Shown piece by piece: positions 1,968 through 59,652 of a stretch of 59,652 nt of DNA. Origin of the DNA: Candidatus Zambryskiibacteriota bacterium. Its GTDB lineage: Bacteria > Patescibacteriota > Minisyncoccia > Phycocordibacterales > Zambryskibacteraceae. Every line of letters begins with the position of its first letter. Within the stretch, counting starts at the first letter, position 1. The notes beneath the pieces were generated by a model that searched no databases, had not been told where the DNA came from, and saw only the letters and a program-made list of their open reading frames with translations. The stretch lies in contig JACOVQ010000002.1 in assembly GCA_016177225.1 (NCBI GenBank), positions 1 through 59,652 on the forward strand. The letters run 5' to 3'. The position numbers were made by a program, and so were the translations under genes.

Positions 1968-2042
1968 ATAGATATTAACATAATATAGTCGAAAGTGGAA
2001 TATACCATTTTAGATTATTGTGATAAACTGTATTCATGCTAC

Positions 2043-2167
2043 CGGCGAAGCAAAACCAAAAAATTTCCTTTCCATTTCTTTTTCCGCTTCGCGGCGGAGG
2101 GGTGGGGGGAGGAGGCGCGAGGAAAATGCAAGGAAATTTTTTGGTTTTTGCACACGCGAGTCCGCGA
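2043..2167. repeat. IR-R: right arm of the perfect 125-bp inverted repeat
   Basis: Exact reverse complement of 1..125. It abuts the first canonical in-frame start (GTG 2170) of tsaD. Confidence 0.9.
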
Positions 2168-2169
2168 GC

Positions 2170-3342
2170 GTGTCCGAGGCGCGCATCATTGGTCATCAGG
2201 GTTCAATTCAAAATACATTCGAACTTCGTTCAATACACACCGCCAAAATTTTATCAATAGAAACTTCGTGTGATGAAACTGCGGTAGCTGTTTTGGATAT
2301 AAACGGCGAATTGGAGAAACCGGATATAAAAATTTTGGGTAATACGCTTTTGTCTCAAATGCATTTGCATGAGAAGTATGGCGGTGTTTATCCAAACTTG
2401 GCAAAGAGAGAGCATGAGAAAAATTTACCAATACTTCTAGAAAAAACTTTGGAGCAAGCGGGCTTTCCTTCCCCTGCTAAGGGGAAGGTGCCAAAGGCGG
2501 AAGGGGTCGATTTAATCGCAGTTACAAGCGGGCCCGGACTCGAGCCGGCGCTTTGGGTTGGCATAACATTTGCAGAAAAATTGGGCAAAAAATGGAATAA
2601 ACCAATCATTCCAGTTAATCACATGACAGGTCATATTTGGTCGGTATTATTTGAAGGTAAGAAAATGGAACTGCCGGCTATAGCCTTGCTCGTATCGGGC
2701 GGGCACACGGAACTGGTTTATATAAAAGATTTTGAAGAGTACAAAATTATGGGACGCACCAGAGACGATGCCGTCGGCGAAGCATTTGATAAAGTAGCCA
2801 GAATGCTTGGACTTCCCTATCCTGGAGGACCGCAAATTTCGAAATTGGCGGAAAAGAACAGGAGTATGAACCACGAATCACGAATCATGTTCCCGAGACC
2901 GATGATTAATTCCGGCGATTTGGATTTCTCTTATTCTGGATTGAAGACTGCCGTTTTATATAAACTCAGAGACCTCTCCCAACCCTCTCCTAGGCTAGGA
3001 GAGGGCGGGCTTAGCCCGGGTGAGGTCGAAGAAATGGCTCGAGCATTCGAAGACGCGGCGGTGGAAGTATTGATAAAGAAAACACGCAAAGCTATTTTAG
3101 AGAAAGGCGATATAAAAACTCTCATTGTCGGCGGCGGCGTCTCGGCTAATCATTATTTGCGCCAAGAGATTAAAAAAATGGCTCAAAATATAAACTTAGA
3201 GATTCAACTTCCAAGTGTAGAGATGACTGGAGACAACGCGTTAATGATAGGTCTTGCGGCATATGTAAAGGTCAAAAAAGACCCGGGAATCCTTAAAAAT
3301 CATGCTCCCATAATAGCTCGAGGTAATGCTACACTAGGGTAA
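2170..3342 (+). CDS. tsaD: tRNA N6-adenosine threonylcarbamoyltransferase TsaD (start uncertain)
   Basis: KILSIETSCDETAVAV, VTSGPGLEPALWVG and VNHMTGH motifs. The tracked start at 2020 reads through the IR. GTG 2170 is the only canonical start between the IR and the conserved core, which begins at about 2245. Confidence 0.85.
   Translation: MSEARIIGHQGSIQNTFELRSIHTAKILSIETSCDETAVAVLDINGELEKPDIKILGNTLLSQMHLHEKYGGVYPNLAKREHEKNLPILLEKTLEQAGFPSPAKGKVPKAEGVDLIAVTSGPGLEPALWVGITFAEKLGKKWNKPIIPVNHMTGHIWSVLFEGKKMELPAIALLVSGGHTELVYIKDFEEYKIMGRTRDDAVGEAFDKVARMLGLPYPGGPQISKLAEKNRSMNHESRIMFPRPMINSGDLDFSYSGLKTAVLYKLRDLSQPSPRLGEGGLSPGEVEEMARAFEDAAVEVLIKKTRKAILEKGDIKTLIVGGGVSANHYLRQEIKKMAQNINLEIQLPSVEMTGDNALMIGLAAYVKVKKDPGILKNHAPIIARGNATLG
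2467..2488 (+). repeat. In-frame palindrome CCTTCCCC-TGCTAA-GGGGAAGG inside tsaD
   Basis: Perfect 8-bp arms. It encodes part of the extra segment FPSPAKGKVPKAEG, located between LEQAG and VDLIAVTSGPG. Confidence 0.6.
2972..3026 (+). repeat. Family-A imperfect palindrome (~55 nt) in frame in tsaD
   Basis: ACCTCTCCC-AA-CCCTCTCC-TAGGCTA-GGAGAGGG-CGGGCTTAGCCC-GGGTGAGGT. Translated as LSQPSPRLGEGGLSPGEV. Related to the copies in secA and gatB. Confidence 0.8.
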
Positions 3343-8390: not shown

Positions 8391-10226
8391 TTAACTCTTA
8401 AGCATTTTGATGAAGACATCTTGAGGAATGTTGATTTTGCCGAGGTTTTTCATCTTCTTCTTGCCTTTTTTCTGCTTCTCGCGCAGTTTCATTTTGCGGG
8501 TAATATCGCCGCCATACATATGCTGAGTAACGTCTTTTCTAAAAGCCGAAACACTTTTTGATGAGATGATTCTGCCGAGCGCTTTTGCCTGAATCTTCAT
8601 GGCAAACATTTGGCGCGGCAACAAGCCGTGAAGTTTTTCCACGGCGGCTTCGGCCTCTTCTTCCACAATCCTCCTTGATATCACTCTCGAAAATGCCGGC
8701 AGTACTTCATCGGCGACCAGAATGTCAAGACGCACTACGTCCGCGTCTCTCTGTCCCGCTATTTCATATGAGATGGATGCAAATCCGGAAGTGGCACGTT
8801 TCAGCTTATCAAAAAAATTGCGCATCAACTCTCGCAAAGGCATTTTCAAAGTCAATTTATTGCGGTTTTCTCCGAAAGTTTCGGTACTTTCTAGTTCGGC
8901 CTCGTATTCATACAAAAGCGGCATTACTGCGCCGAGATAATTCGCTGGCAATAATATTGCCAGCGAAACCCACGGTTCACGTATTTCTCTCAAAAGACCT
9001 TCATCTGGGAAATGCGCCGAGGAATAAATCGTCTCGTGTTTGCCGTTTTTATATGTAACTTCATAGGTAATCGTGGGCGTTGTTACAACCAGATTCAATC
9101 TAAACTCGCGCCGCAAACGTTCGGTAATAATTTCTAGGTGAAGCATGCCTAAAAATCCGCATCTAAATCCCCTGCCTAGCGCTCCGGAAGTTTCTTCTTC
9201 GTAGGTAAACGAGGAATCGGAAAGTTTCAGTTTGCCGAACGACTGTTTTAGAAAAATAAAATCATTGGCATTTTCCGGATAGACAGAAGCCCACACTACT
9301 GGATGCGGTTTTTCGTAACCAGGTAGCGCGGCGCGTGTGTCAGACATTGAAGCCACCGTATCTCCGACTGAAGCCGCGCCGGGCTCTTTGATACCGGTTA
9401 CGATATAGCCAATCTCTCCCGCCTCAAGCGAGTCTCTCGGTTTTTCGTCGGGAGAAAATATGCCCACTTCTATCGCACTAAATTTCTCTTTCGAAACTTT
9501 AAAAATGAGCGGAGTATTTCTCGATACGGAGCCGGACATGACCCGAACGAAAACAATCATTCCGCGGTGAGTCGAGTATTTGAAATCGAAAACCAAAGAC
9601 CTAAAGGTCGGACCTTGAGAATCAGTATTTAAGGTCCGACCTTGATTCGGAGGAGGAATCTTTTTTACTATTTCCGACAATAGATTTTCCACTCCCTCTC
9701 CGGTTTTTCCAGATACTTTGAGTACTTCTCGAGCTTCACAATTTAATAACTTGCAAACTTCTCCGCAAACTTCTTCCACTCGCGCCAGAGGCGAATCGAT
9801 TTTAGAAATAACTGGAATAATAGTAAGTCCCGACTTCGCGAGGCTGAAGCCTGCTTCGTCGTGGCAGAAGCCCGATTCGCGCGCCATGCCGAGAGTGGTC
9901 AGAGTTTGCGCTTGTACGCCCTGCGTGGCATCAACAAGCAATATCGACCCTTCCACTGCTTTAAGCGCGCGAGAAACTTCGTAAGAGAAATCAATGTGTC
10001 CCGGAGTATCAATCAAATTCAGAATGTAATCTTTGTACTTCATCCGCACGGGTTGCATCTTTATGGTAATGCCTCGTTCCCGTTCCAACTCCATAGAATC
10101 AAGCACCTGGTTCTGCATTTTCCGCTTCTCTATGGTTCCCGTTAATTCAAGCATTCGGTCGGCAAGCGTCGACTTGCCGTGGTCAACATGCGCAATAATT
10201 GAGAAATTTCTAATTTTATCGGTCAT
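8391..10226 (-). CDS. lepA: Elongation factor 4 (LepA)
   Basis: IRNFSIIAHVDHGKSTLADRML and LNLIDTPGHIDFSYEV, plus the LepA C-terminal domain. Start set at MTDKIRNF, which gives an ATGA overlap with the murJ stop. Confidence 0.92.
   Translation of the reverse strand: MTDKIRNFSIIAHVDHGKSTLADRMLELTGTIEKRKMQNQVLDSMELERERGITIKMQPVRMKYKDYILNLIDTPGHIDFSYEVSRALKAVEGSILLVDATQGVQAQTLTTLGMARESGFCHDEAGFSLAKSGLTIIPVISKIDSPLARVEEVCGEVCKLLNCEAREVLKVSGKTGEGVENLLSEIVKKIPPPNQGRTLNTDSQGPTFRSLVFDFKYSTHRGMIVFVRVMSGSVSRNTPLIFKVSKEKFSAIEVGIFSPDEKPRDSLEAGEIGYIVTGIKEPGAASVGDTVASMSDTRAALPGYEKPHPVVWASVYPENANDFIFLKQSFGKLKLSDSSFTYEEETSGALGRGFRCGFLGMLHLEIITERLRREFRLNLVVTTPTITYEVTYKNGKHETIYSSAHFPDEGLLREIREPWVSLAILLPANYLGAVMPLLYEYEAELESTETFGENRNKLTLKMPLRELMRNFFDKLKRATSGFASISYEIAGQRDADVVRLDILVADEVLPAFSRVISRRIVEEEAEAAVEKLHGLLPRQMFAMKIQAKALGRIISSKSVSAFRKDVTQHMYGGDITRKMKLREKQKKGKKKMKNLGKINIPQDVFIKMLKS
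9604..9643 (-). repeat. Family-B double hairpin element in frame in lepA
   Basis: AAGGTCGGACCTT-14 nt-AAGGTCCGACCTT, translated as QGRTLNTDSQGPTF in the loop after IPPP. Confidence 0.8.
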
Positions 10227-11896
10227 ACTATCTCCGGGTCTGTCGCAATGACGCGTGTTTTGACGAATTTTTGCCTGACGGCATCCCATATCTCGCTAAG
10301 CTCTTTATTTTTCAACGCCAATAAAACTGCGACTCCCGCAACCAAAGCTGTGATTCCGGAGAGAAACCCTTGGGCAAATATTCCCGGTAATGTGGCGGTG
10401 TTGAAGAGCGGACCGAAAATCTTAAGCGCAAGATAAGCAACAACGCCGATAATAAAAGACGCCCCCAGCGAATCAAAGAGGGTTCGCGCGATGCCGCGGG
10501 AAAAGCCGGGAAACTCGCGTTCAAAAGCCGCCCAAAGGATAACGCTGTTTAGAATAGTCGCAAGCGAGAATGCAAGCGGCAAGACCAAAACCGCGGTGTC
10601 AGGCAGATTTTGGACCCGCAGGACGGTGGCCGTCCAATGCCGGATAAATTCGGAGGCATAGAAAAGCTTGACCGAAGACCAAGCAAGAAAGAAAAGGACG
10701 ATTGTGGAAACCAAATTAATGAAAAACGGCTTTCTGGTAAAGCCCGCCGAGTAAAAACCTCTCATAAATAAAAGCAGGAGCGATTGCGAAAGAGAGGAGA
10801 TGATAAAGAGCGCAAGGGCCGCCGCCACAAGCCGAGTGTCCTCCCAGCCGAACTGCCCGGAACCCAAAAGCACGCGAACAATTTGGGCGCGAAGAATCAC
10901 GATAAGCGCCGTAAGCGGCAGGGACCAAAAGATGATAAACCTCGCGGTCGCCCTCATTTGGTTTTTGAAAGCCTCGAAATTGCGTTCCTTGAAATTTCTT
11001 GAAAGCGTGGGGAAGGCGGCCAGCGAATACGATACGCCAATGAGAGAGAGCGGCGCAGTCATAAGATTAATGGAGAAATAAAGTACCGAAATCGAACCGG
11101 CTGACATGAGCGATGCCAAAGATATCAAAAAGATAGCGCTCAATTGGCTCATGGATAACGTGAGCGTTCTGGGCAGAGAAATAGTGACCACATTTTTAAT
11201 CATTTTCCAGTCGATAAAACGGAGCCGGGGAAAGAGTCCGAGAGACATGACGGAAGGAACTTGGATGAACACATGGAAAAGCGCTCCGATAATTACTCCC
11301 AGAGCCACCCCTAAGACGCCCAGTTTCGTAGCGAAGACAAGCACTCCCAAGACGATGCCAGCATTGTAAAGCACGGGTGCCAAAGCGTAGACGGTAAAGC
11401 GTCCGTAAGCCTGAGTGATGGAGCCAAGCAAGTTTGACAGCCCTAAAATTATCGGCGACAAAAGAAGGACTCTTGAGAGAAAAATTGTTTCGGCAAGTTC
11501 GGACGGGTTAAAGCCTTTAAATAAAATTTTTGCCGCAAACGGCATGAGAAAGAACGCCAATACCGATATCGCGACAATGAAAATCGCGAAAAAAGAAAAA
11601 ATGTTGTCGACAAAACGGCGGAGAGACTCTTTGCCCTTGGATTCTTCATTGATGATAAAAGGTATCAGCACTGACAAAGAGACTATCGAAGCGGCAGTAA
11701 CAAATATAAAGTCCGGAATCCTAAAAGCCGCAGTGTAAATGTCGAGCGCTTGCCCGGCGCCAAAAATATGAGCCAAGAGCCTGTCTCTTAAAAGTCCGAG
11801 AATCTGGGAGAGAAAAGAAAACAGCCCCAAAAGAAACGCGGCTTGATTGAGACTCTTCGTCTCTTTGTATAAAAACCCCAAGATTTTGCGAACCAT
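10223..11896 (-). CDS. murJ: Lipid II flippase MurJ/MviN
   Basis: LGLLRDRLLAHIFGAGQALDIYTAAFRIPDFIF plus about 14 TM segments. Confidence 0.85.
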   Translation of the reverse strand: MVRKILGFLYKETKSLNQAAFLLGLFSFLSQILGLLRDRLLAHIFGAGQALDIYTAAFRIPDFIFVTAASIVSLSVLIPFIINEESKGKESLRRFVDNIFSFFAIFIVAISVLAFFLMPFAAKILFKGFNPSELAETIFLSRVLLLSPIILGLSNLLGSITQAYGRFTVYALAPVLYNAGIVLGVLVFATKLGVLGVALGVIIGALFHVFIQVPSVMSLGLFPRLRFIDWKMIKNVVTISLPRTLTLSMSQLSAIFLISLASLMSAGSISVLYFSINLMTAPLSLIGVSYSLAAFPTLSRNFKERNFEAFKNQMRATARFIIFWSLPLTALIVILRAQIVRVLLGSGQFGWEDTRLVAAALALFIISSLSQSLLLLFMRGFYSAGFTRKPFFINLVSTIVLFFLAWSSVKLFYASEFIRHWTATVLRVQNLPDTAVLVLPLAFSLATILNSVILWAAFEREFPGFSRGIARTLFDSLGASFIIGVVAYLALKIFGPLFNTATLPGIFAQGFLSGITALVAGVAVLLALKNKELSEIWDAVRQKFVKTRVIATDPEIV

Positions 11897-14230: not shown

Positions 14231-14306
14231 GCATTGTAATTTGACGAGGCAAGGCCTCGACCAAGCACAGCATTGTAACTTGACGAGGCAAGGCCTCGAC
14301 CAAGCA
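14231..14306 (+). repeat. Two tandem 37-nt REP units upstream of the RAYT gene
   Basis: GCATTGTAAyTTGACGAGGCAAGGCCTCGACCAAGCA occurs twice (14231..14267 and 14270..14306). Hairpin CGAGGC-AAG-GCCTCG. Confidence 0.85.
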
Positions 14307-14312
14307 ATTATA

Positions 14313-14321
14313 TGGTATAAT
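14313..14321 (+). promoter_or_regulatory. Extended -10 TGGTATAAT, 6 nt upstream of the RAYT ATG
   Basis: TATGGTATAATTTTTATATG. The identical TGGTATAAT precedes rnpB. Confidence 0.5.
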
Positions 14322-14327
14322 TTTTAT

Positions 14328-14972
14328 ATGAGTTTGCGTAAAATCCCATTTGTGCCAGATGAGTACTACCATATATACAGTCGCGGTAGTGATAAGCGCA
14401 AAATATTCCACGACAACTCAGATTACAATCGCTTCTTAAATATTCTTTACCTATCAAATTCCGACATTAATTTTAGATTCGATAGAATCGAAGATGTCTA
14501 CTCTACCGAACGTGGCCAAAGACTTGTTTCAATAGGAGCTTATTGTCTTATGCCAAATCACGTGCATATTCTCATAAAGCAAGTTGCGGAAAACGGTATA
14601 AGCAGATTTATGCATAAACTCTTAACCGCTTATTCCATGTATTACAATACCAAATATGAACGCACGGGAGGATTACTTGAAGGTAAGTTCAAAGCAGAAC
14701 TTCTTGATTCAGACAACTATCTTAAATATCTATTTTCTTATATACATTTAAACCCTGTGAAATTGATTGAGCCGAAGTGGAAAGAAAGTGGAATTAGAAA
14801 CAGAAATAAAGCTATAGATTTTCTTAATAAATACCGTTATTCAAGCTACCAAGATTTTATGAGAATAGACCGAAAGGAAAAAGCAATTCTAAATTTGGAA
14901 GATTTCCCGGAGTATTTCCCGACTAAGGAAAAATTCCAAGAAGAAATTTTCGACTGGATTGATTACAAATAA
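14328..14972 (+). CDS. REP-associated tyrosine transposase (RAYT, IS200/Y1 HUH family)
   Basis: YHIYSRG, LMPNHVHILI (HUH) and YIHLNPVK (catalytic Tyr region). Flanked by REP hairpins. Start taken at MSLRKIPF rather than the tracked TTG at 14241, which reads through the REPs. Confidence 0.85.
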   Translation: MSLRKIPFVPDEYYHIYSRGSDKRKIFHDNSDYNRFLNILYLSNSDINFRFDRIEDVYSTERGQRLVSIGAYCLMPNHVHILIKQVAENGISRFMHKLLTAYSMYYNTKYERTGGLLEGKFKAELLDSDNYLKYLFSYIHLNPVKLIEPKWKESGIRNRNKAIDFLNKYRYSSYQDFMRIDRKEKAILNLEDFPEYFPTKEKFQEEIFDWIDYK

Positions 14973-14982
14973 GTTGAAAAAC

Positions 14983-15037
14983 TGACGAGGCAAGGCCTCG
15001 ACCAAGAAGAACTTGTGGTGTAATTTAAAACCACTTT
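14983..15037 (+). repeat. 55-bp REP-plus-hairpin unit, left direct repeat
   Basis: TGACGAGGCAAGGCCTCGACCAAGAAGAACTTGTGGTGTAATTTAAAACCACTTT. Repeated at 18106..18160 with one mismatch. Confidence 0.9.
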
Positions 15038-15053
15038 GAAATACTAGGATATG

Positions 15054-16663: not shown

Positions 16664-18022
16664 ATGCGGAAAGTATTTGGGGTAATTTTTATCACATTCG
16701 TGGTCACAAATTTCCCTCTGGCACTTGCTCAACAACAAGACTGGTTGGCGCGATGCTGGACTATCAACGTCCAGCGAGTAAGTGGGGACATGATTTTCAT
16801 CTACCCCAACAGCGACAGCAGAGTCACTTCCAGCCTCATCGGCGGCAACTCGTTTGATGAGCAGGAAATGACTCGTTGTGTGTATAGTCGGCTGTACGGC
16901 AAAGGCAAGCCGGAAGAAGAGAACGACTTCGTTGCCTATGCGCAGACTATTCCAGACAACAATTCGTATCCAGCCTACTTCCTGCGGGCGATGAACGCCT
17001 CACCGGGACTCGGTCTGGGAAGGTACGACCGCTCGTTCATGTTCGGCAGCAAGGGACGATTGCTTGGTGTCATCAACACCGGATTCAGCATCGTCAACCT
17101 AAACGCCGAACTGCAAAACATTCACTTCGATGAGTTGAATCACGAAATAAGCCACACGAAATGTTGTTACGCGGGCCATCAGCATTACGAGTACATAAAT
17201 GCGTTCGGAGATGGTTTCGGACATTGGTCCCGCTATCTCGGACGCAACGCTCGCGGCGAAGACGGTCCGGACAATTGCTCTGTGATGAGAGCCTCTCCAT
17301 ATGTCGAGCTCGGCAACGGGGACGCGCAAACACGGAACTGCCATTACCAAAGCCGACCAACAATAAACTCGTTAGAGATGTATCTGTGGGGATTCAAAAA
17401 CGCAGATGCATCAAAAGGTAAACAATTCCCATCGGTATCGTCAAAAGGAACAAGCATTTCCCATGACATTTACCGGGCTCCGATTGAAAAGTGGCTGACC
17501 ATTGACGACCTCATTGCGAAGATGGACGGGGAGGTGGTTTGGCCATCGGCGGAAATTTCGCCGAAGCACTTGCGGGTTCTATTCGCTCTGGTTATCATGC
17601 CGGGAACGGACAACAGGCAACTGCAGGCAATGCAGAATCGCTGGCAAGAATTCGCGCGGTTGGCGAGAGGCACATGGAATGAAGCGACAGGTGGAGTGTC
17701 CACGCTGAATAATCCATCCAAACCAAATCCGACCATGTTGGTCAGCAAGGACTACTTGGGAAAGTGGGACTTCTCGTACCACCCGGGTGAGTGGCTGGTG
17801 TTAAACATCACTGGCGCCGTACCGAACCAGTGGGGTATTCTCGTCGGATTTGATGGAAAAAATCAGTATTCCATTTCCATCAAATCCGACGAGACAGGCA
17901 AGGCGGCGTTCTCCGCCTTACTGCTCAAGGACCATATCGGAACGTGGTCCGCAGTTGTGCACTTCGGGGATGGCGTGACCTCAAACGTGATCACGTTTGA
18001 GGTCACGCCTCCCGGTCAATAA
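16664..18022 (+). CDS. Secreted protein with an HExxH motif (putative zinc metallopeptidase)
   Basis: Signal peptide MRKVFGVIFITFVVTNFPLALAQ. LNHEISHTK is the only HExxH motif. Several Cys residues. No family recognised with confidence. Confidence 0.45.
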   Translation: MRKVFGVIFITFVVTNFPLALAQQQDWLARCWTINVQRVSGDMIFIYPNSDSRVTSSLIGGNSFDEQEMTRCVYSRLYGKGKPEEENDFVAYAQTIPDNNSYPAYFLRAMNASPGLGLGRYDRSFMFGSKGRLLGVINTGFSIVNLNAELQNIHFDELNHEISHTKCCYAGHQHYEYINAFGDGFGHWSRYLGRNARGEDGPDNCSVMRASPYVELGNGDAQTRNCHYQSRPTINSLEMYLWGFKNADASKGKQFPSVSSKGTSISHDIYRAPIEKWLTIDDLIAKMDGEVVWPSAEISPKHLRVLFALVIMPGTDNRQLQAMQNRWQEFARLARGTWNEATGGVSTLNNPSKPNPTMLVSKDYLGKWDFSYHPGEWLVLNITGAVPNQWGILVGFDGKNQYSISIKSDETGKAAFSALLLKDHIGTWSAVVHFGDGVTSNVITFEVTPPGQ

Positions 18023-18105: not shown

Positions 18106-18160
18106 TGACAAGGCAAGGCCTCGACCAAGAAGAACTTGTGGTGTAATTTAAAACCACTTT
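18106..18160 (+). repeat. 55-bp REP-plus-hairpin unit, right direct repeat
   Basis: Identical to 14983..15037 except G to A at the fifth base. Confidence 0.9.
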
Positions 18161-18168
18161 TCAACCTA

Positions 18169-23420: not shown

Positions 23421-23660
23421 ATGAAGGAACTCTACTTCTCAATTAAAGAAGCGGCGCAGATTCTCGGGGTTTCTCCTCTTACTCTCCGCAACTGGGATAA
23501 ATCAGGCAAATTCCGCGCCTCTAGACATCCTATGAATAATTATCGTGTGTATAAATTGTCTGCCCTGGAGGACATTATCGCCGACATCGAAGGCGGCACC
23601 AACAAATCCAACGCAGAGAAGCAGATTAAGAAACTGATTATTAAACACGAAGAAGACTAG
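23421..23660 (+). CDS. MerR/excisionase-type HTH protein (79 aa)
   Basis: YFSIKEAAQILGVSPLTLRNWDKSGKF...YRVYKLSALEDI. Confidence 0.7.
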   Translation: MKELYFSIKEAAQILGVSPLTLRNWDKSGKFRASRHPMNNYRVYKLSALEDIIADIEGGTNKSNAEKQIKKLIIKHEED

Positions 23661-25072
23661 TTTTTAACCTGTTCGAAAAGTTCTGACAGAATTTTAGGAT
23701 TCGCTTTGTTCTCTGTTTTTTTCATGGCCTGACCAATCAAAAATTGAATAGATGCTTCCGGATTTTCATTTAATACTTCTTCAACAACTTTTTTCAAAAC
23801 TTCTTTGCTATTCTCCTGAATTAAATTTTTCTCTTTAGCAATTTGCCCCGGATCTCCACCTTTAATTTCAATAATTTTCAAAATATCTTTGGCGCCGCGG
23901 GAAGAGAGCTCTCCGCTATCTACCATCTTTATAACCTCGACCAAGGCTTCTGGCTCCACAGGTTTCTTCAAATCAGAGGTAATGTAATTCGAGGCTAGCG
24001 GTATTAGACGGATGTCTCCCAGACATTCGATTACTTCTTCGAAGTAATTCCCCCACTCCGGCTGGGTCACATAAATTTCAGCGTGTTCCGCGGTTATGCC
24101 AAGCTTTAATAACCTTTCTCGCTTCTGCCACGGCAGTTCCGGCAAGCTTTCAGCAAGGACAGTCCTTGTAAAATCGGGCACTTCATTTATGAAAAGCTTT
24201 GGCAAATCCGGCTCCGGGAAATAGCGGTAATCATGCGCCGATTCTTTCAGTCTTTGCGAAAACGTCGCCCCGACGTTTTCGTCCCACCCTCGCGTTTCTT
24301 GTATTACTTCGTTACCGTTTTCTAAGATTTCTATTTGTCTTTTATATTCAAATTCAACTGCCTTACCCACCGCCCTGAAAGAATTGATATTTTTTACTTC
24401 GACTTTTGTGCCCAAGGTCTGACCTTGGAAATCGGAATTCTTAAGGTCAGACCTTTGTACGGAAATATTTGCTTCCACCCGCATCTCGCCTTTCTCCATA
24501 TTTGCGTTGGAAATCCCAAGGTACTGTAGAAGCAATTGGAGCTCTTTGGCAAACTTTACAGCCTCTTCGCTTGTATGCATTACTGGCTCAGTCACTAATT
24601 CCATCAAGGGTACCCCCGCTCGATTGAAATCGATGAGACTTACCTCACCCCCTTTCCCCTCTCCTTGAGCAAGGAGAGGGGCTGGGGAGAGGTGGGTAGA
24701 TTTCGCTGTATCCTCCTCAAGGTGAATCCTTGTGATCTTTATACCATTTAGAGAACCGCCTTTCACCAACGGGTACTTGTATTGGCTGATTTGATAGCCT
24801 TTTGGAATATCGGGGTAAAAATAGTTTTTGCGGTCAAACTCGGTAAAGTCGGCCAGTTCTCCTCCCACAGCGACACCTAAGCGTAAAATACTTCTGACCG
24901 CTTCTTTATTAATAACAGGCAAAGTGCCCGGATAACCCATACACACTGGACAAATATTTACATTGGGACGCCTTTCATCCGGATGATTGGCGGAATTGCA
25001 AAACATTTTTGTTTTGGTGTTCAACTCGGCATGTATTTCGAGACCAATGGTTAATTTATAGTCTTTACCCAT
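23657..25072 (-). CDS. gatB: Asp/Glu-tRNA(Asn/Gln) amidotransferase subunit B
   Basis: YKLTIGLEIHAELNT, CPVCMGYPGTLPV, NRAGVPLMELVTEP and the C-terminal GatB_Yqey region. Start taken at MGKDYKL. Confidence 0.92.
   Translation of the reverse strand: MGKDYKLTIGLEIHAELNTKTKMFCNSANHPDERRPNVNICPVCMGYPGTLPVINKEAVRSILRLGVAVGGELADFTEFDRKNYFYPDIPKGYQISQYKYPLVKGGSLNGIKITRIHLEEDTAKSTHLSPAPLLAQGEGKGGEVSLIDFNRAGVPLMELVTEPVMHTSEEAVKFAKELQLLLQYLGISNANMEKGEMRVEANISVQRSDLKNSDFQGQTLGTKVEVKNINSFRAVGKAVEFEYKRQIEILENGNEVIQETRGWDENVGATFSQRLKESAHDYRYFPEPDLPKLFINEVPDFTRTVLAESLPELPWQKRERLLKLGITAEHAEIYVTQPEWGNYFEEVIECLGDIRLIPLASNYITSDLKKPVEPEALVEVIKMVDSGELSSRGAKDILKIIEIKGGDPGQIAKEKNLIQENSKEVLKKVVEEVLNENPEASIQFLIGQAMKKTENKANPKILSELFEQVKN
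24414..24455 (-). repeat. Family-B double hairpin element in frame in gatB
   Basis: AAGGTCTGACCTT-16 nt-AAGGTCAGACCTT, translated as RSDLKNSDFQGQTLG. Confidence 0.8.
24641..24698 (-). repeat. Family-A imperfect palindrome in frame in gatB (diverged copy)
   Basis: Core CCCCTCTCCTTGAGCAAGGAGAGGGG. Translated as HLSPAPLLAQGEGKGGEV. Confidence 0.75.
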
Positions 25073-25131
25073 AAAATGACAAATGACAAAAGCCAAATGT
25101 CGAATCAATTATTAAAGTCTGAATGTCTAAG

Positions 25132-57566: not shown

Positions 57567-57633
57567 GAGAAAGCGTGGGACGCTTTCGCAAGACCTTTTG
57601 AGATATTTTAAATAAATTTGATACCGAGCTTCG

Positions 57634-57706
57634 TGCGCGCACTTGGGGTCGAACCAAGGACCTTTCGAGTATCAGTCGAATGCTCTACCAACTGAGCTAT
57701 GCGCGC
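57634..57706 (-). tRNA. tRNA-Ile(GAU)
   Basis: GCGCGCA-TA-GCTCAGTTGGTAGAGC-A-TTCGA-CTGATAC-TCGAA-AGGTC-CTTGG-TTCGACC-CCAAG-TGCGCGC-A. TATAAT lies 9 nt upstream. Confidence 0.9.
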
Positions 57707-57864
57707 ACGAAGCTAATTATACGATTTATTTATAAATATCCAAAAGGTGTACAGTTCCTGTAAGGAATCAGTCGAAGTCACAAGTCAAAGCCTACTGGCT
57801 TTGCTTGCGACCCCGCCTCGCGTCGTCACGCTCCGACCTTCCGGTCGGGTCCCACCCCGACCTC

Positions 57865-58184: not shown

Positions 58185-58950
58185 CATGTTCTACCCTCAT
58201 GTCGCCATGAGGCACGGACTATATCATCACCCTTGTTTGAAGAATTTTCCCTTTGATAGGATGTGCTGATCCAATCTTTGAGGCAAAATTTTTATGAGAT
58301 TTTGCTCTTACATAGACTCTCCAGTAGTCCGGGTCAACACGTTCGCTAGGATTGTGTATTTTCCCTGTACTGATGTCTAACGTAGAGAGCATTCTCACAA
58401 GCTTCTCAATTTTAGTTCGATCTTTCTGAACTAGCTGAATATAGAATCCAGCTTTTACATTTCGAGGAACGCCTCCTTCGGCGTCAAAGAAACCTCTAAT
58501 ATATGCCGCTTTTTCTGCATTCGTAACCAGTGTTAGTGGATCGAATCGAAAATCAAGAAACTTCGCAAGTGTTTCCAATGTGTAGACTTCGCGATTTCTC
58601 TCTCTGTAGATCCAGGACTTATATCCAAGTTCCTGAAATAACTTTTGAAGAAACGTTAGCCATTCTGTACCCTTCTGGGTAAAACGGTATCGTTTCTTCT
58701 TATTGAGAGAGGCGTCGTGAAGCGCACCCAATAGATAAGCTTGTATTTCTTCACAAGGGGCTCGGCGTGTAGTCTCTGAGGGGTCAACAACGACTTCCCT
58801 GCTGATTCTCTGCACCTGTAACTTTGTTACAATTATGATACTTAATTATATCATAGCTGTAGTCCAGGATTCCCAGAATTTCCAGCATATAGCCAAGCTT
58901 ATTTTTCCAGAAATTACTTTCTGGCGTCGCAACGGACGCAGTTTGCGTCT
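58185..58950 (-). mobile_element. 766-nt intervening sequence in 16S at the AAGTCGT|AACAAGG site (E. coli ~1500)
   Basis: The exon junction reconstitutes the universal AAGTCGTAACAAGG. The 5' exon ends in U and the insert ends in G. It contains a LAGLIDADG ORF. Confidence 0.8.
58219..58815 (-). CDS. Double-motif LAGLIDADG homing endonuclease
   Basis: YLLGALHDAS and YIRGFFDAEGG motifs, about 90 aa apart. Confidence 0.85.
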   Translation of the reverse strand: MQRISREVVVDPSETTRRAPCEEIQAYLLGALHDASLNKKKRYRFTQKGTEWLTFLQKLFQELGYKSWIYRERNREVYTLETLAKFLDFRFDPLTLVTNAEKAAYIRGFFDAEGGVPRNVKAGFYIQLVQKDRTKIEKLVRMLSTLDISTGKIHNPSERVDPDYWRVYVRAKSHKNFASKIGSAHPIKGKILQTRVMI

Positions 58951-58984
58951 ACGACTTCGCCTTTGTCATTGAGTTTACCGTGGG

Positions 58985-59039
58985 CCCAGCCCCAGTTTTA
59001 CGATTTTAGAAAATTCTACTTCCTAAAACTGGGGCTGGG
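58985..59039 (-). repeat. Expansion at the tip of 16S helix 44 (16-bp perfect stem)
   Basis: CCCAGCCCCAGTTTTA ... TAAAACTGGGGCTGGG. This region is about 30 nt longer than in E. coli. Confidence 0.6.
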
Positions 59040-59303
59040 ACTTCGGGTACTCCCAACTTCCCTGGCGTGACGGGCGGTGAGTACAAGACTTGAGAACGTA
59101 TTCACCGCGGTATGGCTGACCCGCGATTACTAGCAATTCCAACTTCATGGGGTCGAGTTGCAGCCCCCAATCCGAACTGACGCCGCTTTTCTTACGATTA
59201 GCTCGGGGTTACCCCGTCGCAACGCGTTGTGGCGGCGATTGTATTATGCGTGTAGCCCAAGGTATCAAGGGACATGCTGACCTGGCGTCATCCTCGCCTT
59301 CCT

Positions 59304-59387
59304 CCCCGATTTAAATTTTTGATTAAAGGTTCGACCTTTAGAATTCCCAAGGTCGAACCTTGGGAACTTCAAAAACTTAAATCGGGG
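59304..59387 (-). repeat. ~70-nt expansion of 16S helix 40 containing a family-B double hairpin
   Basis: CCCCGATTTAA ... TTAAATCGGGG encloses AAGGTTCGACCTT (59326..59338) and AAGGTCGAACCTT (59349..59361). E. coli has a 15-nt hairpin at this position. Confidence 0.8.
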
Positions 59388-59621
59388 CAGTCTCGCCAGA
59401 CACTTATAACTGGCAACGAGGGTTGCGTTCGTTACCCCACTTAAGGGAACAGCTCAAACCACGAACTGACGACGGCCATGCATCACCTGTCCAGCACATA
59501 CCTTTCGGTATTCTGCTCATTTCTGAGACGGCATTATGTGCTGGGTTTCTAACCTTGGTAAGGTTCTTCGTTTACCTACGAATTAAACCGCATAATCCAC
59601 TGCTTGTGCAAGTCCCCGTCT

Positions 59622-59652
<31 letters not shown>

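Follow-up and report, generated by a model that had tools for sequence, protein, structure and literature searches.

REPIN-RAYT systems, in which doublets of repetitive extragenic palindromic (REP) sequences form hairpins (REPINs) and occur together with tyrosine transposases associated with REPs (RAYTs), have been described in Pseudomonas, Escherichia coli and other bacteria (PMC3116915, PMC3337134), and the classical REPs are extragenic, their hairpin foot bearing a GTAG or GTGG tetranucleotide (PMC3337134, PMC6006769). The Rickettsia palindromic elements (RPEs), of ~100-150 bp, have been described as encoding a conserved peptide and have no known transposase (PMC10969869). The rRNA genes of the candidate phyla radiation (CPR) are in turn rich in insertions, of which the available survey counted only those of at least 100 bp, short ones devoid of an open reading frame (ORF) being left uncharacterised (PMC11270868). 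Here we describe a short hairpin repeat in a 59,652-nt stretch (hereafter, the window) of contig JACOVQ010000002.1 from a Candidatus Zambryskiibacteriota bacterium, an ultra-small Parcubacterium of the CPR, where it lies within lepA, within gatB and within helix 40 (h40) of the 16S rRNA gene. A repeat type that is normally found only between genes has here entered genes and rRNA. REP and REPIN elements are in fact defined as extragenic, and most in-frame palindromes known are those of Rickettsia, for which no transposase has been found; our case unites both, being a hairpin repeat physically tied to Y1/HUH transposase genes and mostly located, across a very large radiation of bacteria, within essential genes and rRNA.

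In an exact search of the window, the 13-nt unit AAGGTNNNACCTT was found six times, and every occurrence was paired inversely with another to give three doublets (unit positions and spacers are shown in Table 1), while only ~0.06 occurrences would be expected by chance according to our own calculation for a uniform sequence. When two mismatches were allowed, 11 matches were obtained versus 1.76 expected, a number attained in 0 of 100 shuffles. Within a pair, the two units are exact reverse complements of each other, non-palindromic centre included, and the three spacers have in common a polar motif, RRGAAT(T/C), in equal polarity. All three copies show the geometry of a REPIN, with two short palindromic units placed inversely around a short spacer and capable of forming a hairpin; DNA folds of the doublets gave z values of -4.6 to -5.5, and hairpins with 3-nt loops were predicted in RNA as well as DNA folds. 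The doublet core measures 36-42 bases in the window copies and 36-47 nt across the family. The inserts in lepA, gatB and h40 are one repeat family, and the original prediction, made from the letters of the sequence, that the h40 insert is the element also found in the two protein genes is borne out by unit, inverted-pair architecture, spacer motif and spacer polarity alike.

On the plus strand, the h40 core consists of AAGGTTCGACCTT, the 10-nt spacer TAGAATTCCC, which has GAATTC inside as had been noticed at the outset, and AAGGTCGAACCTT, the exact reverse complement of AAGGTTCGACCTT. A 19-nt outer inverted repeat (59304-59322 / 59369-59387, 95% complementary) surrounds this core. When the gene was aligned to the Rfam covariance model, the hairpin ACcgCCggcGa..gccGGagGAAGG, which corresponds to h40 of E. 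coli (GAGACUGCCAGUGAUAAACUGGAGGAAGG), was found to have a 72-nt loop versus 3 nt in the model. As RNA, the 94-nt h40 stretch forms a strong hairpin (-48 kcal/mol versus -21 +/- 2.9 in shuffles, z = -9.35), either as a single long structure or as an 18-bp stem bearing two small hairpins. The outer stem (AAGTTTTTGA...TCAAAAA), in addition, is homologous to a ~40-nt extension of h40 (stem AAGTTTTTGA...TCGAAA) that is frequent in the clade. The whole hairpin of ~84 nt had initially been taken for the element; judging from these alignments, however, the apical ~46 nt is the putative mobile repeat, whereas the outer stem is an older, clade-wide lineage feature. An old and conserved lineage feature is also what the original prediction had named as the finding that would speak against it, and this description applies to the outer stem only, not to the apical doublet.

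Among 116 related 16S genes that have in common a 39-mer beside h40, this helix is minimal in 37 and expanded in 79, by 13 to more than 200 nt, and the content of the expanded helices is very diverse, mostly palindromic or repetitive. An empty h40 (CCTCG-GTATA-CGGGG) is present in L043 (L-numbered loci are stretches that we fetched from other genomes), the 16S of which is 85-91% identical to that of the window over the aligned blocks. Among the related 16S genes sampled, the apical AAGGT doublet is seen at h40 only in L167, which lies on contig Ga0082335_1000028 and has the nearest 16S of the sample (89% identity), and where the centres are CAG/CTG rather than the TCG/CGA of the window, which amounts to two compensatory pairs, while spacer and flanks are ~93% identical. 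The nearest matches of the 16S copy among the fetched genomes lie in protein genes (36/38 identical positions in L071b, 91% in L001). Other hairpins occupy the same tip elsewhere, as L122 has an inverted pair of a unit similar to the REP-A hairpin described below and L175 a single CTTGGAAGC...GCTTCCAAG palindrome. L011 (78 nt versus 6 in the model) and L082 carry the AAGGT doublet at a 23S hairpin tip, and L218 carries it in a 16S-tRNA spacer. A resemblance of the hairpins to a tRNA T-arm, which had been raised as a speculation, did not survive closer inspection: the loops are of 3 nt versus the 7 nt of a T-loop, and the T-arm motif GGTTCGA is found only in the subtype with TCG/CGA centres, one of at least five, other centres being CNG, TCA and TAA. 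A T-arm origin was also rejected on the grounds that ARAGORN and Rfam find no tRNA at the h40 insert. Rfam gave no match in 59304-59387 and the insert has no ORF, which led us to reject a group I or group II intron or a homing-endonuclease insertion as well.

The lepA ORF (8391-10289) and the gatB ORF (23657-25108) both lie on the minus strand, and their nearest protein relatives (79-80% identity) belong to Candidatus Zambryskibacteria and other Parcubacteria. In lepA the doublet is translated as QGRTLNTDSQGPTF, in a loop between IPPP and FRSLVFDF, with both units in one frame (QGRTL...QGPTF), while the gatB copy gives QRSDLKNSDFQGQTL, its units falling in two separate frames (QRSDL...QGQTL). 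The lepA copy recurs with 100% identity in four contigs that were assembled independently from further sequencing runs, and is therefore not an assembly artefact. The organism is present in the metagenome runs SRR12113385, SRR12113420, SRR12113422 and SRR12113430. The corresponding LepA loop (IPPP/FRSLIFDF) measures ~7 aa in most relatives and reaches 26 aa in others; in L120 (LepA 78% identical) it is empty, in L083 (58% identical) it holds a AAGGTCTGACCTT doublet, and in L121 (79% identical) it holds a doublet of another family, CTTGGAAAC-CGA-GTTTCCAAG / CTTGGAAAC-TCG-GTTTCCAAAG. As for GatB, the loop is of ~6 aa in 35 of 120 relatives, carries the doublet in at least 50 and a single unit in P0138, and has other inserts elsewhere. 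Filled, empty and single-unit states are interspersed on a neighbour-joining tree, with at least 10 changes of state. Taken together, the patterns at both loops would agree with permissive sites at which inserts have been gained and lost repeatedly. The boundaries of the insertions and any target duplications were looked for at both loops, and the junctions could not be placed, as the nearest empty orthologues are too divergent (LepA 78%, GatB 72%).

The GatB loop also receives sequences of other kinds. Among the proteins P0205, P0209 (locus L242, 2085-3935) and P0039 of relatives, a PD-(D/E)XK nuclease domain of ~150 aa (PF13366) sits in frame in the exact GatB loop used by the doublet in some, and the same domain is found within one LepA. 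Genes of the 23S_rRNA_IVP family (PF05635) adjoin gatB in L242 and lie near lepA in L121. It appears that selfish DNA of several kinds can land in this loop. We considered the PF13366 insertion of P0205 and P0209 as an autonomous partner of the doublet and rejected it, given that its flanks form a weak 8-12-nt inverted repeat without AAGGT units. The gatB loop of L074 holds three units (AAGGTCCGACCTT, AAGGTCGGACCTT and a diverged AAGGACGGTCCTT), and triple units also stand beside a RAYT gene in L026 (2692-2995); by analogy, these three-unit sites may be said to resemble higher-order REP arrays.

A scan for the doublet pattern in 185,579 species, one genome each, returned at least 119 loci, whereas ~8 chance matches would be expected for the whole collection by our own estimate. 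Among the matches listed the doublet is almost exclusively restricted to Patescibacteria, the carriers being Zambryski-, Kaiser-, Lloyd-, Nomura- and Taylorbacteria, Paceibacterota and others. In 113 of the 135 doublets over which its structure was analysed, the free 3-nt centre of one unit is the exact reverse complement of that of the other, versus 1 in 64 by chance, and spacer lengths cluster at 10, 11 and 14 nt, a purine-rich GAAT motif being common. Most copies are intragenic, as 79 of the 113 perfect doublets (~70%) lie inside ORFs of at least 150 aa, in frame with proteins as varied as LigA, TopA and DnaG; in other lineages, too, the hosts include LepA and GatB. The 20 hosts examined by Pfam comprised leucyl-tRNA synthetase (4), another class I tRNA synthetase, UvrA (2), UvrB, topoisomerase I, SecA, NAD-dependent ligase (3), primase, GatA (2), a P-type ATPase and TPR proteins, one host remaining without a match. 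The units are translated as RSDL, G[RQP]TL or KV[GR]P, and all nine combinations of frames are found. Because copies are read in different frames, what is conserved is the doublet at the DNA level and not a peptide. Orientation with respect to the host gene has no clear bias (10 sense, 15 antisense). A doublet in another Zambryskibacteria genome (L019a) is, spacer included, identical to the lepA copy of the window at 36 of 40 positions and lies in a different gene. Three doublets are present in the 59.6 kb of the window, and up to six in four fetched stretches of one metagenome-assembled genome (MAG).

Sequence outside the units provides further clues on how copies arise. At least 4 complementary bases directly outside the units are present in 30 of the 135 copies (~0.4% expected per copy). 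Alignment to solved structures in the PDB gave a usable insertion boundary for the UvrB of L025 only, and none for L023 or L024; compared with solved UvrB, the L025 protein has gained 14 aa (42 nt), which corresponds to the 35-nt core plus ~7 nt that mirror upstream host codons. The GatB insertion of L036 (+17 aa) is likewise longer than its 41-nt core. Such mirrored flanks suggest either growth of the palindrome by template switching after insertion, or an insertion process that copies the flank in inverted form.

The link between this repeat and a class of transposases comes from other genomes. L121 (Zambryskibacteria RIFCSPHIGHO2_01_FULL_44_22b) encodes a Y1_Tnp protein flanked by inverted hairpins, and a tblastn search with this protein retrieved a homologue in the window (60% identical, and the sole candidate mobilising enzyme there) and 12 more among the fetched doublet loci. 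In L070, L032, L075, L093, L030, L013 and L026, AAGGTnnnACCTT units, as doublets or as singlets, lie within ~60 nt of the Y1 gene on both sides, and in L070 they form two flanking doublets with inverted spacers. In the Y1 proteins both the HxH motif and the catalytic Tyr (YxxxNP) are conserved, and the Pfam Y1_Tnp threshold is passed. Their best and only NCBIfam match is REP_Tyr_transpos, at 40.4 bits and below the RAYT cut-off of 80; a 13-sequence profile weakly matches ISDra2 TnpA (E = 0.04), and a direct sequence search of the PDB yielded only spurious cyclin matches. The protein family has more than 4,700 sequence clusters, some of which bear the name 'REP element-mobilizing transposase RayT' in their source. 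Doublets are also found in frame inside the RAYT ORFs of L013, L118 and L026; those of L013 and L026 are of the unit type that flanks the gene, L118 having no flanking units.

Table 1. Position of the hairpin doublets, their 16S rRNA host and the RAYT-like gene with its hairpins in the 59,652-nt window.
Feature	Position	Strand	Description
16S rRNA, 3' part, host of the h40 insertion	58931..59652	minus	Rfam SSU_rRNA_bacteria, 476.9 bits; 5' end beyond the window
Whole h40 expansion	59304..59387	minus	84 nt with the native CCCCG/CGGGG stem; lineage-specific outer stem plus apical doublet
Doublet in 16S h40	59326..59361		Units 59326-59338 and 59349-59361; spacer 59339-59348 (GGGAATTCTA in RNA sense)
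Doublet in lepA	9604..9643		Units 9604-9616 and 9631-9643; spacer GAGAATCAGTATTT
Doublet in gatB	24414..24455		Units 24414-24426 and 24443-24455; minus-strand spacer AAGAATTCCGATTTCC
RAYT-like Y1/HUH transposase gene, 214 aa	14328..14972	+	Pfam Y1_Tnp, 36.5 bits (cut-off 23); HxH and Tyr conserved
REP-A hairpin GACGAGGCAAGGCCTCGAC, two direct copies upstream of the RAYT-like gene	14243..14300	+	Copies at 14243-14261 and 14282-14300
REP-A hairpin directly downstream of the RAYT-like gene	14984..15002	+	Repeat runs on to ~15040
REP-A, fourth, dispersed copy	18107..18125	+	1 mismatch; intergenic; repeated stretch to ~18163

We think it likely, though some way from certain, that the element is a non-autonomous mobile hairpin of the REP/REPIN type that survives inside genes, and we prefer this reading because doublets flank Y1/HUH (RAYT-like) genes in seven loci. 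Y1/HUH transposases act on hairpins in single-stranded DNA, and Parcubacterial genomes have almost no intergenic space. The element would be made of two 13-nt near-palindromes (AAGGT-NNN-ACCTT), inverted with respect to each other around a polar spacer of 10-16 nt (RRGAAT...), and such doublets would fold into hairpins when the DNA is single-stranded. RAYT-type Y1/HUH tyrosine transposases probably bind these hairpins, cut at them and re-insert the doublets, and this would most likely take place during replication. Since so little intergenic space is available, insertions would land in genes and only those of low harm would persist, selection presumably acting as the filter. The survivors in proteins would be those that are free of stop codons, restore the frame and sit in surface loops of large housekeeping proteins, to which they would add 7-17 hydrophilic residues, while survivors in rRNA would be those at the tips of peripheral hairpins, the h40 copy of the window topping an already extended helix. 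A structure-driven insertion, as put forward in the original prediction, is rendered plausible by the position of the family beside Y1/HUH genes.

Several observations weigh against this reading. For the window itself, the link to a RAYT is indirect: when examined as the cognate enzyme, the resident RAYT-like gene was rejected, as its flanks carry the REP-A hairpin and not AAGGT units, and its nearest relatives (83-85% identical) also have REP-A-like flanking hairpins, so that no cognate enzyme for the AAGGT doublet is seen in the window. No transposition event or polymorphism was seen, the four contigs with the same RAYT being 100% identical to the window and hence uninformative. The net gain is ~+7 aa in lepA and +9 aa in gatB, both below the length of the core, and as net gains do not equal core length the exact inserted unit is undefined. 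Core lengths that are multiples of three are not enriched among the in-ORF copies (26/79). The flanks that are complementary within a copy differ between copies, even within one MAG, which simple Y1 cut-and-paste would not lead one to expect. To these points two departures from the known systems must be added, as ~70% of the copies are within ORFs or rRNA and as the units start with AAGG, with no GTAG or GTGG conserved beside them.

Part of this evidence would be expected if the doublet were an orphan selfish palindromic element similar to RPEs, that is, an old family whose mechanism is extinct or unknown and which persists passively, its adjacency to Y1 genes being secondary, for instance because transposase genes are themselves favoured landing sites. 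The lack of a cognate RAYT within the window, the use of RAYT ORFs as insertion targets, and the long persistence suggested by a gatB copy in the same loop of lineages whose GatB identity is only 64-70% are all in line with this possibility, and RPEs do persist in frame without a known transposase (PMC10969869). Nonetheless, we consider it unlikely, as units stand symmetrically on both sides of Y1 genes, with inverted spacers as in L070, which is the arrangement of RAYTs and REPINs (PMC3337134) and not that of random landing; moreover, different RAYT lineages each have their own flanking hairpin type, which looks like co-evolution of enzyme and repeat, and near-identical doublets in different genes of related genomes argue for recent movement. 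Selection of the doublet by the host, be it for protein binding, RNA processing, stability or translational pausing, possibly as shared regulation of translation genes, could explain why the arms are perfectly complementary in most copies, why window and L167 differ at h40 by compensatory pairs, with spacer and flanks little changed, and why equal loops are occupied in distant lineages, and all three hosts in the window do act in translation. We give little credence to this possibility, however, because hosts across genomes are diverse (DNA repair, replication, secretion, ATPase and TPR proteins), close relatives lack the element at equal sites, both orientations are found, other hairpin families occupy equal loops, and units flank transposase genes. 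That the three copies might be unrelated quasi-palindromes, generated by chance or locally by template switching during replication, is hardly credible. Palindrome-extending template switching could indeed yield copy-specific complementary flanks, of which the extra nucleotides in the UvrB of L025 are an example, but local processes cannot make one 13-mer and its spacer in unrelated genes, and six exact units, a spacer motif common to the copies and a large number of loci, mostly in one phylum, are far from the chance expectations reported above. Template switching as the origin of the core is effectively refuted, and is possible only as a secondary process on the flanks.

A separate question regards solely what becomes of the RNA. 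In h40, the insert could be an intervening sequence (IVS) that is cut from the 16S precursor by RNase III, leaving a fragmented or trimmed 16S, and we regard this as a serious possibility, although short of an even chance. The long near-perfect duplex, with an outer stem of ~18 bp and 13-bp arms, would suit such processing, it has been proposed that short CPR rRNA insertions without ORF are IVSs of the RNase III type (PMC11270868), and inserts exceeding 200 nt, of unrelated sequence, are tolerated by the h40 of this clade, which would be easier if they were removed. On the other hand, compensatory change in the arms fits a processing stem or a retained helix alike, and the basal extension of ~40 nt is conserved across many relatives, as expected of a retained expansion segment. 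With respect to the REP/REPIN-type reading, a bolder version of it can be formulated, in which RAYT-driven doublets in Parcubacteria would act generally as a source of new loops in essential proteins and of new expansion segments on rRNA helices, by a chemistry possibly unlike known Y1 transposition. We offer this only tentatively and consider it rather doubtful. If it applied, the host sequence next to a junction may be present there as an inverted copy, arms may be kept complementary in the long term by compensatory or concerted change, as the comparison of the window with L167 illustrates, and some copies could be retained in mature ribosomes and proteins, possibly after recruitment for a function.

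Other hairpins and repeats in and around these loci deserve mention. REP-A makes up a second family of repeats, separate from the AAGGT doublet. Its upstream copies sit in two direct 39-nt repeats, all three copies beside the RAYT-like gene (14241-15040) have the same orientation, and the ~55-nt downstream repeat, made of the hairpin and GAAGAACTTGTGGTGTAATTTAAAACCAC, recurs at 18107-18163 between convergent genes. A further hairpin family (CTTGGAAAC-NNN-GTTTCCAAG) provides the doublet in the LepA of L121 (10001-11803), and related palindromes are found at h40 in L128 and in L175, where the unit is of the type seen in the L121 LepA, so that the AAGGT family is not the only one to pair a protein loop with h40. 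In the window, an ORF of unknown function (16664-18022) contains near its 3' end two perfect palindromes in frame, one with 21-nt arms around the loop AAATCAGTATTCCA (17839-17894) and one of 38 nt (17972-18009). The loop AAATCAGTATTCCA and the spacer of the lepA doublet have in common the 10-mer AATCAGTATT, which is found only four times in the window, and these two palindromes may be further hairpin elements with other arms. Lastly, a hairpin element of ~97 nt (27-nt arms, 89% complementary) is present twice in opposite orientation (20-116 and 2052-2148), where the two copies bracket a 1.9-kb segment with one ORF (428-1792) that has no clear Pfam family, and the second copy overlaps the annotated 5' end of a TsaD-like ORF (2020-3342).

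The rRNA operon of the window has additional peculiarities. On the minus strand the 16S gene is followed by a group I intron and then by tRNA-Ile. The intron (58195-58945; Rfam, 51.3 bits), with a LAGLIDADG_3 ORF of 198 aa (58219-58815), interrupts the 3' end of 16S, the 3' exon of which seems to restart near 58190 (GAACAAGGCACGGGTAGGAGAACCTGC), and no clear anti-Shine-Dalgarno CCUCC was found after that point. The tip of 16S helix 44 (58978-59046) is also expanded, to 37 nt versus 10 in the model, by a hairpin with 26-nt arms whose sequence is unrelated to the AAGGT doublet. An inverted repeat of 49 nt (76% complementary) at 57593-57748 brackets tRNA-Ile, overlapping both ends of the tRNA, and could form a long processing stem in the transcript of the rRNA operon.

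If the proposed explanation is true, at least some of the short uncharacterised insertions in CPR rRNA would have a concrete origin, and so would lineage-specific loop insertions in CPR housekeeping proteins. The element would provide a tractable system for the study of how selfish DNA survives in genomes without spare space, and the movement of RPE-like elements would become testable, candidate enzymes being at hand. A word of caution would also be due to annotators and phylogeneticists, as indels in CPR marker genes and 16S can be recurrent mobile insertions rather than a sign of shared ancestry.

As for the known systems, our element has several structural traits in common with REPIN-RAYT. 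Two short imperfect palindromes are inverted around a short spacer and can form a hairpin, the Y1/HUH gene is flanked by repeats of the same family (here in the seven loci from other genomes), lineages of the enzyme are paired with their own repeat sequences, and singlets as well as doublets are found. Our literature search for REP, RAYT, REPIN or palindromic elements in CPR/Patescibacteria returned no description, most subscription journals being outside its coverage. Besides the departures discussed above, the units are shorter here (13 nt), the proteins fall under the NCBIfam RAYT cut-off and are longer (~215 aa), and the doublet of the window and the resident RAYT-like gene do not match. 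In common with RPEs (PMC10969869), the element is an in-frame hairpin repeat that has entered many unrelated housekeeping genes of a bacterium with a reduced genome and is tolerated as an extra surface peptide. Unlike RPEs, to which it has no sequence similarity, it is only 36-47 nt long, is read in three frames and both orientations, resides in a Patescibacterium, and is physically tied to Y1 transposase genes. As in other cases of IVSs and CPR rRNA insertions (PMC11270868), extra sequence absent from relatives is found at the tip of an rRNA stem-loop, and the 16S gene of the window also has a group I intron with a LAGLIDADG ORF; the h40 insert, however, is not an intron, and the same repeat occupies protein genes. 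Short selfish hairpins in a compact genome are likewise seen in organelles, namely in the mitochondrial rRNA module of Volvox, whose repeats are otherwise confined to intergenic and intronic DNA (PMC2670323), and in the mitochondrial coding palindromes of Nematomorpha (PMC6649704), but these are eukaryotic, their sequences are unrelated to ours and no transposase is known to be associated with them, whereas units of the AAGGT family stand on both sides of a Y1/HUH gene.

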